64,000 nt of DNA from Clostridiales bacterium (GTDB taxonomy: Bacteria > Bacillota > Clostridia > Oscillospirales > CAG-272): assembly GCA_021202555.1 (NCBI GenBank), contig JAJQCT010000029.1:66287-130286 (forward strand), written 5' to 3'. The position numbers and the translations under genes were made by a program. Of this stretch, positions 47,764 through 48,090 are shown one piece after another; within the stretch, counting starts at the first letter, position 1; each line of letters opens with the position of its first letter. The notes beneath the pieces were generated by a model that had not been told where the DNA came from, made no database searches, and worked only from the letters and a program-made list of their open reading frames with translations.

Positions 47764-47793
47764 TTGCATTTCGGCACGCTTTTATGTTATAAT
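47764..47793 (+). promoter_or_regulatory. Sigma70-type promoter driving F1 copies B and C
   Basis: TTGCAT - 18 nt - TATAAT, followed by AAGACATTGAG. Confidence 0.5.
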
Positions 47794-47795
47794 AA

Positions 47796-47888
47796 GACAT
47801 TGAGAAATGGGCACAGCCCATTTCTCAAGTCTGTTGAATATATTTTTGCATCATAGATACAAAAATATATTCACGGGTACACTGCACG
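47796..47888 (+). repeat. F1 multi-hairpin module, copy B (H2 + H3 + tail)
   Basis: GAC-A-TTGAGAAATGGGC ACA GCCCATTTCTCAA-GTC; G-T-TGAATATATTTTTGCATC ATA GATACAAAAATATATTCA-C; GGGTACACTGCACG. Confidence 0.8.
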
Positions 47889-47930
47889 ATGATACAATAA
47901 AAGTGCATCACGATAGAGAGAGGCTATTAT

Positions 47931-48066
47931 AACATTGAAGGATAAATCACAGATTTAAAGACGTTCCATTGTGAATCAAAGATTCACAATGGAAGTCGTC
48001 AAGTTGGTGAATATCGAAAATCAATCATAGATTTATTTTCAATATTCACGGTATAGCACTCGAATT
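47931..48066 (+). repeat. F1 multi-hairpin module, copy C (full)
   Basis: AACATTGAA; TAAATC ACA GATTTA; GAC-G-TTCCATTGTGAATC AAA GATTCACAATGGAA-GTC; GTGAATATCGAA..AATCAATC ATA GATTTATT..TTCAATATTCAC; GGTATAGCACTCGAAT. Confidence 0.8.
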
Positions 48067-48090
48067 GATATAATATAGGGAGAGGATATT

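Follow-up and report, generated by a model that had tools for sequence, protein, structure and literature searches.

Several families of short repeats that lie between bacterial genes are known. The REP/BIME sequences of Escherichia coli and other enterobacteria are transcribed extragenic mosaics built from a few types of short palindromic unit, in numbers that vary between strains, and REP hairpins act on mRNA ends. The Correia elements of Neisseria end in inverted repeats of 26 nt and duplicate a TA target, and both REP and Correia elements serve as exonuclease barriers or RNase III substrates. The Streptococcus pneumoniae repeats BOX (boxA-boxB(n)-boxC), RUP and SPRITE have been reported to move slowly between strains, and BOX elements, too, act as exonuclease barriers or RNase III substrates (PMC3049150). 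Promoters within Correia elements are credited to Siddique et al. 2011 in the work on "putative mobile promoters" that cites them (PMC3488235). Here, we analyzed a 64,000-nt stretch of a Clostridiales bacterium of the CAG-272 lineage (contig JAJQCT010000029.1, positions 66,287 to 130,286; hereafter the window), which contains five copies of a multi-hairpin module, together with alleles from other strains and a sister species. The modules form a mosaic, nested family that lies in transcribed spacers, is oriented with transcription, turns over between strains and rebuilds a promoter at its 3' end. It is a new repeat family of a known kind of element and not a riboswitch-like RNA. It belongs to none of the families named above, and it stands out by its long perfect stems, its nesting, boundaries that run from one -10 box to another and a high turnover between strains. 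We regard the five copies as probable lineage-specific dispersed palindromic repeats of the REP/BIME/BOX kind, shaped by template switching at the DNA level and likely to affect mRNA ends and the supply of promoters.

An initial annotation had placed the copies at 22391-22473 (A), 38602-38735 (D), 42254-42306 (E), 47796-47888 (B) and 47931-48066 (C), and the sequence agrees at all positions. The motif AACATTGAA occurs five times in the window against an expectation of 0.67, a count attained in none of 100 shuffles, and exact TATTCACGG on the + strand is restricted to the four module sites within the window. Copies C and D are 86% identical across ~135 nt, and a repeat finder connected A, C and D as well as C, D and E. 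The longest perfect inverted repeats with short loops in the window, 13-19 bp, are the module hairpins. When folded as single strands and compared with dinucleotide shuffles, A, B, C and D gave z values of -12.7, -9.6, -5.5 and -6.4, respectively, and the minimal copy E, folded alone against the same kind of shuffles, gave a nonsignificant -1.3.

Comparison of the alleles of other strains and of the sister species showed that the modules are mosaics of two types of palindromic unit, PU and H3. A PU spans 36-38 nt and consists of RAC, one bulged base, a 13-14-bp stem that starts with TT and ends with AA, a 3-nt loop (mostly ACA or ATA) and GTY. It comprises the hairpin called H2 in the initial annotation and, in addition, the hairpin starting at AACATTGA, the frames GAC...GTC and AAC...GTT being covarying versions of one PU frame. 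The motif AACATTGAA, which had been set apart as a box of its own, is actually the left frame AAC-A-TTGA of a PU, the right frame of which is TCAA-GTT. The arms of H3, TGAATAT...ATATTCA, enclose a variable palindromic core (12-20 bp in total) and are followed by the tail CGG-N-YAGC; the sister species carries the variant CAAATAT...ATATTTG, a double compensated change. Within each module, the order is PU, then H3, then tail, and the units share one orientation, standing head to tail or, in some cases, nested. A recount found C-RNA-G tips in 10 of the 11 hairpins rather than in nine.

Copies A and B, both on the + strand, illustrate the two units. In copy A, the PU GAC-T-TTCCTTTATGAATC-ACA-GATTCATAAAGGAA-GTC (22391-22428) has a perfect 14-bp stem and scores 53.8 bits with R1, a covariance model of the PU, and the H3 TGAATATATGATTCAAAGC-GTA-GCTTTGAATCATATATTCA (22432-22472) has a perfect 19-bp stem, which carries two mismatches at its tip in strain L118. 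Module B (47788-47898; R1 52.3 bits) runs from a -10 box TATAAT (47788-47793) through a PU (47796-47831), an H3 (47835-47873) and the tail CGGGTACACTGC (47874-47885) to a trailing TGATACAAT with a -10 at 47893-47898, forming the promoter TTCACG-17-TACAAT. The claim that H2 stems are unrelated among copies holds for B, which represents a second stem type, but not for A and C/D, the stems of which agree at 12 of 14 positions and differ by two compensated changes. The statement that each copy begins with a -10 box was likewise right for most copies, which have a good promoter upstream, but not for A, which lacks a -10 box and begins 2 nt past the stop codon of the formate-tetrahydrofolate ligase (FTHFS) gene.

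Modules C and D show how units are nested. In both, H1 and a nested H2 unit lie inside an outer frame pair, AACATTGA/TCAAGTT. The corresponding module of L128 and L129, C', has a complete first PU, AAC-A-TTGAAGGATAAATC-ACA-GATTTATCCTTCAA-GTT, and in module C of the window, a 41-nt PU (AAGACGTTCC...GGAAGTCG) replaces 4 nt of the right arm of this first PU; the "H1 plus H2" of the window is therefore one unit nested in another. On the + strand, module C (47925-48074; R1 51.4 bits) consists of a -10-like TATTAT (47925-47930), the left frame AACATTGA (47931-47938), H1 (47943-47957), the nested PU (47960-47997), the right frame TCAAGTT (47999-48005), H3 (48007-48049), a tail (48050-48059) and a trailing TGATATAAT with a -10 at 48069-48074, which gives TTCACG-18-TATAAT. 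Module D (38596-38729, + strand; R1 34.4 bits) has the same nested build behind the promoter TTTGCA-18-TATAAT with a TG extension: the -10 TATAAT (38596-38601), the left frame AACATTGA (38602-38609), H1 (38614-38628), the nested PU (38631-38669), the right frame TCAAGTT (38671-38677), H3 (38679-38721) and the tail GGTTCAGC (38722-38729). The compensatory change of an H1 pair between C and D, pointed out in the initial annotation, is correct. A closing stem formed by AACATTGA and TCAAGTT around H1 and H2 was considered for C and D; the sequences are present, but this stem is missing from the minimum-energy fold, and we read the pair as a relic of the nested insertion.

Module E (42248-42296, + strand; R1 42.4 bits) is a minimal form, identical in structure across all strains compared. 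Its promoter, TTGACA-17-TACAAT with a TG extension, scores 11/12; the -10 TACAAT (42248-42253) is followed by a degenerate PU (42254-42291), the right arm of which merges into TTCACGG, and by the tail GGTACAGC. Directly 5' of the ribosome-binding site (RBS) of the bactofilin gene lies an orphan left frame, AACATTGAAG (42316-42325, + strand), which has no partner arm and is kept in all strains. The -10 of module E is also bracketed by an inverted repeat, AATGTTAT-GGTACA-ATAACATT (42238-42259), in which the AACATT frame start pairs upstream of the -10.

Across ~119 kb of the window species and the sister species, nine module sites were found in eight intergenic regions. This density of ~1 site per 14 kb suggests ~150-200 sites per genome, a figure that is an extrapolation and not a count. 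The source assembly, with proteins numbered MCD8056xxx, is one of about ten conspecific metagenome-assembled genomes (MAGs), and the species, an uncultured member of the gut Clostridia, is an isolated lineage, with FTHFS relatives outside it that are at most 79% identical. Strong R1 matches occurred only at module sites (219 kb + 47 kb of lineage DNA), where the sense strand scored ~20 bits above the antisense, and there were none in 739 kb of unrelated genomes, including ~20 Clostridia loci. A scan of genome contigs with the pattern TGAATATN{20,32}ATATTCACGGT, which is loose and gives mostly chance matches in coding DNA, yielded one true case in 112 stretches among the matches listed, a 5.8-kb contig of the sister species with three modules stacked in one spacer and a DegV 68% identical to that of the window species. 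The same pattern plus the tail gave four matches in metagenome contigs, all of them chance, and two scans of viral contigs revealed no family members. The statement that the module fits no RNA family was borne out: Rfam gave no match anywhere in the window at the gathering score, and a permissive scan of 47700-48100 reached only the level of hairpin noise (ctRNA_pND324, 26 bits against a threshold of 45; sok, 20 against 59).

The sites occupy several kinds of context. Modules D, E and B/C, and those of the DegV operon in both species, lie in 5' leaders; copy A lies at the 3' end of the purine/FTHFS operon, and another module occupies the fabG-fabF spacer within an operon. In L256 (14887-15240), the ~150-nt leader of a tRNA-Gln(ttg) gene follows a TTGACA-17-TAAAAT promoter and comprises three hairpins of the family, and a convergent minus-strand module overlaps the end of a minus-strand GH2 mannosidase open reading frame (ORF), the stop codon of which falls inside the PU loop. 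(In this MAG, the GH2 mannosidase gene is split into three ORFs.) All sites are extragenic or overlap a gene end. The observation that the copies point the same way as the next gene was right, and all nine sites are co-oriented with their own transcription unit; only 250 nt separate the minus-strand module from one on the plus strand, so orientation tracks transcription and not a fixed DNA strand. The downstream genes are functionally unrelated: an unknown membrane protein with alanine racemase, the bactofilin cluster, a GH43-methyltransferase fusion, DegV and a tRNA.

With palindromic units repeated in the transcribed extragenic DNA of these eight regions, the family resembles REP/BIME, which are likewise mosaics of a few unit types in strain-variable numbers. 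However, the sequences are unrelated, the frames here being RAC-N-TT...AA-GTY and TGAATAT...ATATTCA with no 5' GTAG, and the stems are longer and essentially perfect. Furthermore, the units keep one orientation, head to tail and nested, whereas those of REP/BIME alternate; many copies sit at the -10/+1 junction of a promoter rather than at 3' ends; and no RAYT (Y1/HUH domain) was found among the 37 window ORFs scanned, the set to which all protein-family negatives below refer.

The modules turn over rapidly between strains. Flanking sequences are 96-99% identical in coding regions and 92-97% in spacers, whereas alignments of the module regions reach 57-75% identity and contain 21-38 gap positions. 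At the GH43 site, L132 and L133 are empty, TATGGTATAAT being followed directly by AAAAGCGCATCAC; L123 and L124 carry B only; L128 and L129 carry B plus C', that is, C without the nested PU; the window carries B plus C; and L125 carries B plus a different, unrelated module (X). In L128 (9360-10008, reverse strand) and L125, a relic RBS with ATGAGTGA, the first codons of GH43, lies upstream of C' or X, and a short upstream ORF therefore reads into the module. The D site, between TATAAT-AACATTGAA and TTTATAGTAATAACGGC, has at least four structural alleles in five strains. At the copy A site, a second strain has an extra 47-nt PU, the stem of which is two double changes away from that of its neighbor. 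In the stack of the sister species, three differences separate two strains: a whole module is swapped, TTGATAAAT... has become TTGAGAAAT... through a double compensated change, and an H3 tip has lost 14 nt symmetrically. BOX elements are comparable in organization only: both families are modular Gram-positive elements with variable internal modules and secondary structure, co-transcribed and confined to one species and its closest relatives (PMC3049150). Unlike the pneumococcal repeats, with their reportedly slow movement, however, three of the four comparable sites of this family differ among strains with 92-99% identical flanks, and the coupling to promoters is specific to it.

The initial annotation had argued that pairing, bulge position and frames are kept while stem sequences turn over, and this was confirmed by strong covariation in both unit types. 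In a set of 14 distinct PUs, which aligned easily, 97.0% of the cells were paired, compared with 74.6% in 500 shuffles and 27-47% in controls with the partners slid by 1-3 columns. Changes on both sides had occurred in 12 of 17 pairs, and there were 54 double-changed cells against 16 in shuffles, none of the 500 reaching 54. Similarly, pairing reached 97.5% in the outer 12 bp of ten distinct H3 units, and both sides had changed in 7 of the 12 pairs.

Could the modules, then, be dedicated cis-regulatory leader RNAs with hairpins bound by a protein or a ligand? In addition to the covariation, the bias of the loops on the sense strand, the position of most copies between a promoter and a gene, the orientation of all copies with transcription and the presence of modules before the DegV operon in both species speak for such a role. 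Nevertheless, we consider it very unlikely, and the claim of a selected, dedicated regulatory structure is not supported. The genes served are unrelated, and copies are also found within an operon, upstream of a tRNA and at 3' ends. Whole units are acquired, dropped, nested and exchanged among conspecific strains. Even near-identical strains differ in hairpin number, order and sequence, with complete absence as the extreme, unlike the stable architecture of a riboswitch or leader RNA. No Rfam family matches, and the stems, perfect over 13-20 bp, are not enriched in G-U pairs: Watson-Crick pairs occupy 418 of 441 stem positions, and the mismatches comprise four G.T, three A.C and 16 of transversion type, giving no signal of RNA selection in what is a small sample. 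Single changes that break a pair outnumber compensated ones between strains (~7 versus 2), and single mismatches are private to individual strains. Finally, with the start site placed by the usual 7-nt gap after the -10 box, the covarying left frame of promoter-proximal copies would fall between about -6 and -4 relative to the promoter next to it and would therefore be absent from the RNA of that promoter. The varied contexts, unrelated genes, unit turnover, lack of G-U bias and excess of pair-breaking changes are the behavior of a dispersed palindromic repeat family.

Template switching between inverted repeats is known to homogenize arms, invert spacers and produce compensatory changes of several bases at once (PMC8794818, PMC8604942). 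The family alleles resemble the products of such mutagenesis at quasipalindromes (PMC8794818, PMC8604942, PMC7202029) in their homogenized arms, one-step multi-base changes and inverted spacers, although template switching is a mutational mechanism and not an element family, and its action here would be deduced from these patterns. Loops are inverted in places (AAA versus TTT, GCA versus TGC), and decay is seen in older copies such as E, the H3 of D and the orphan AACATTGAAG at 42316. DNA-level processes create and preserve the palindromy, at least in part; judged from the sequences, the perfect stems would mainly mirror how the copies arise and how young they are.

The module boundaries coincide with promoters. 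Compared with the empty allele of L132 and L133, module B is a 110-nt insertion placed directly after a pre-existing -10 box and ending with its own TGATACAAT, which those strains lack. The right arm of H3 carries a -35-like TTCACG or TTGCGG 15-20 nt 5' of a trailing -10, TGnTAYAAT; roughly half of the modules combine a spacing of 17-18 nt with the TG extension. Because a module runs from one -10 box to a fresh one, an insertion does not deprive the gene of a promoter, and stacking of modules is possible. In bringing or rebuilding terminal promoter hexamers, and in placing the same promoter-like sequence before unrelated genes, these small repeats are similar to the Correia elements and the "putative mobile promoters" (PMC3488235), but neither terminal inverted repeats nor a TA target duplication was found in them.

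Such an arrangement of nested promoters had been offered as an alternative in which the palindromes are DNA operators, and at the sequence level this part stands, for TTCACG, 17-18 nt and TGnTAYAAT recur. AT-rich perfect arms would also extrude easily as cruciforms, so that supercoiling-sensitive structures might gate the promoters; the palindromes overlap the -10 through about +40, and GAATC-NNN-GATTC tips recur. That the modules are operators for a transcription factor, or gating cruciforms, is nevertheless highly improbable. A protein reading the half-sites TGAATAT/ATATTCA would neither need the intervening 11-27 nt to be palindromic nor tolerate such a range of spacings, the PU stems differ in sequence among copies, some copies lie where there is no promoter, and the trailing promoter of C would start transcription within the Shine-Dalgarno sequence. 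To our knowledge, none of the operator consensus sequences considered (cre, Fur-type, Spo0A) fits the palindromes. The hairpins were also considered as intrinsic terminators and rejected, as they lack U tracts, and the lone weak match was a minus-strand reading of the B PU.

The sharp boundaries of whole-unit insertions, one of them directly after the -10 in an otherwise identical allele, and the TAnnAT-like hexamer that precedes 10 of the 11 module starts might instead be those of non-autonomous mobile elements (MITE, REPIN or PATE type) that target TAnAAT^AA and are moved by an enzyme encoded elsewhere, such as an HUH/Y1 transposase (RAYT, IS200/IS605 TnpA) or a tyrosine recombinase recognizing folded single-stranded hairpins. 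The frames, bulged base and C-RNA-G tips, which are kept while the stems vary, would suit structure-specific recognition, and the strict orientation at nine of nine sites, the units common to two species and the nesting of units in units also fit. We hold mobile elements to be unlikely, however. Transposase (including TnpA), HUH/Y1 nuclease and integrase families had no match among the window ORFs, there is no GTAG or comparable conserved cleavage motif, and module ends such as AAGACATTGAG... and ...CGATGATACAAT are not complementary, only single units being palindromic. A TAnAAT^AA preference exists at the insertion points, yet flanking duplications are also present, and these are imperfect and range from 6-9 nt for B (the -10 box) through 18-30 nt for C' (RBS and ATG) to ~45 nt for the L125 module. 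The imperfect 18-45-nt duplications of the last two, which take in the RBS and first codons, hardly suit a staggered cut of fixed length or an element bounded by terminal inverted repeats. Moreover, neighboring modules on opposite strands follow transcription and not one DNA strand.

A more far-reaching idea is that the units are substrates of an undescribed structure-specific recombination that inserts them at the -10/+1 junction in an oriented, transcription-coupled manner and rebuilds the promoter each time. This is quite unlikely; if it were true, hairpin cassettes recognized by frame, bulge and C-RNA-G tip would constitute a built-in generator of strain diversity in 5' leaders and expression levels. 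Recombination sites of similar form are the integron attC sites, which fold as single strands and could here capture "cassettes" beside promoters. In both, paired frames, here (TA)AC...GT(TA), and one extrahelical base are kept while a central paired sequence varies in sequence and length; the right frame GTTAGAT fits GTTRRRY in some copies, and the insertions adjoin a promoter. The resemblance is formal only. The core-site consensus is partly matched, the left frame misfitting RYYYAAC; there are no intI-like gene among the scanned ORFs and no cassette ORFs; the copies are dispersed among housekeeping genes instead of forming one array; and the units are contiguous, with nothing between them. 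We find attC-like sites scarcely credible.

Dispersed palindromic repeats spread at the DNA level, the reading that we favor, would work as follows. New copies would arise by replication template switching or by ectopic conversion between promoters, with the -10 boxes as microhomology. Switching within a hairpin would then homogenize its arms, producing perfect stems, multi-base "compensatory" changes and the occasional inversion of a loop, and old copies would decay. The RNA made from a promoter-proximal copy would open with a hairpin flush at its 5' end, +1 being the G of TTGA, and copies at 3' ends would cap the transcript. The family hairpins may act on mRNA ends as those of REP do, the RNA stems most likely serving as exonuclease barriers or RNase III sites; mRNA stability and expression would therefore vary from strain to strain.

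Several observations weigh against this reading. The negative result for a transposase covers the window ORFs, and the lineage DNA seen amounts to ~119 kb, which leaves room for a dedicated enzyme encoded elsewhere. Module B, where present, is 99-100% identical between strains with 92-97% identical flanks, and several unit sequences are shared without change by two species with DegV proteins of just 68% identity; such conservation must reflect selection, a master copy or transfer from strain to strain. In addition, 24 of 29 loops read R-N-A on the sense strand. Pure drift at the DNA level predicts neither such a strand bias nor an orientation that follows transcription, and some strand-specific constraint, on the RNA or on one DNA strand, must therefore exist. 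Some alleles come from MAGs, in which palindromes can be misassembled, although every allele class except B plus X is present in two assemblies. Lastly, the start sites, the RNA hairpins and the effect on stability are all inferred from sequence.

Other repeats in and around the window deserve mention. Copy A is followed on the + strand by a degenerate tandem decamer, GTATTCACAC (22473-22531), that repeats the H3 right arm and has ATTCGCGCGG at its end; in another strain, the array is one unit shorter with several substitutions, and it looks like slippage at a unit boundary. The hairpin GATTCAAAGC-CGGC-GCTTTGAATC (34452-34475), between convergent genes, has the same stem as the H3 tip of copy A; it is possibly a stray family fragment. 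Upstream of module B, the region 47560-47760 contains unrelated perfect hairpins, e.g., CTTAAGCCCCTTTT-TGAA-AAAAGGGGCTTAAG and CCAAAGAAACTTTT-TTCA-AAAAGTTTCTTTGG; this block is flanked by two copies of GGGGTACGGGGCAAAGCCCCGA, is missing in L124 and L129 and is partly deleted in L123 and L125. The leader of a PrsA-like rotamase gene (53760-53985) is hairpin-rich and hypervariable, with five tandem 21-nt ACGATTCCGCTGCGCGGAAAA units, each a small hairpin, and other palindromes; three other strains have two ACGATTCCGCTGCGCGGAAAA copies, and L124 lacks the whole ~215-nt block, so that the RBS abuts the gene.

Among the neighboring genes, GH43 (48091-50157) encodes a glycoside hydrolase fused to an S-adenosylmethionine-dependent methyltransferase domain. 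The 595-aa bactofilin-repeat protein (42339-44126) had no matches in a large protein search, not even to the proteins of near-identical strains, probably because the index was swamped by repeats. In-frame tandem repeats occur in the coding sequences of two proteins without a Pfam match, at 41588-41687 (21-nt period) and at 56219-57133 (periods of 9 and 24 nt, with an abundance of GAAAC and ACNGA codons).

The family has practical consequences for the study of this lineage, as the repeats break its short-read assemblies. In short-read (Logan) assemblies, contig boundaries fall within module hairpins: the start of L001 lies in the H3 of C, L119 extends from the H3 of D to the tip of the B PU, and the contigs L126, L127, L130 and L131 start at GCCCATTTCTCAA, which is also the tip of the B PU. 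The results also call for caution in the interpretation of covariation, because riboswitch-grade covariation can arise from dispersed DNA palindromes, and covariation alone is no proof of a functional RNA. If the -10 boxes truly serve as microhomology, they would provide a simple, transposase-free way of spreading promoters and 5' hairpins. Finally, the GH43 and D sites offer a tractable natural allelic series of remodeled promoter-proximal leaders. At the GH43 site, near-identical strains carry the same gene with zero, one or two modules, and with these, mRNA stability and expression should change.

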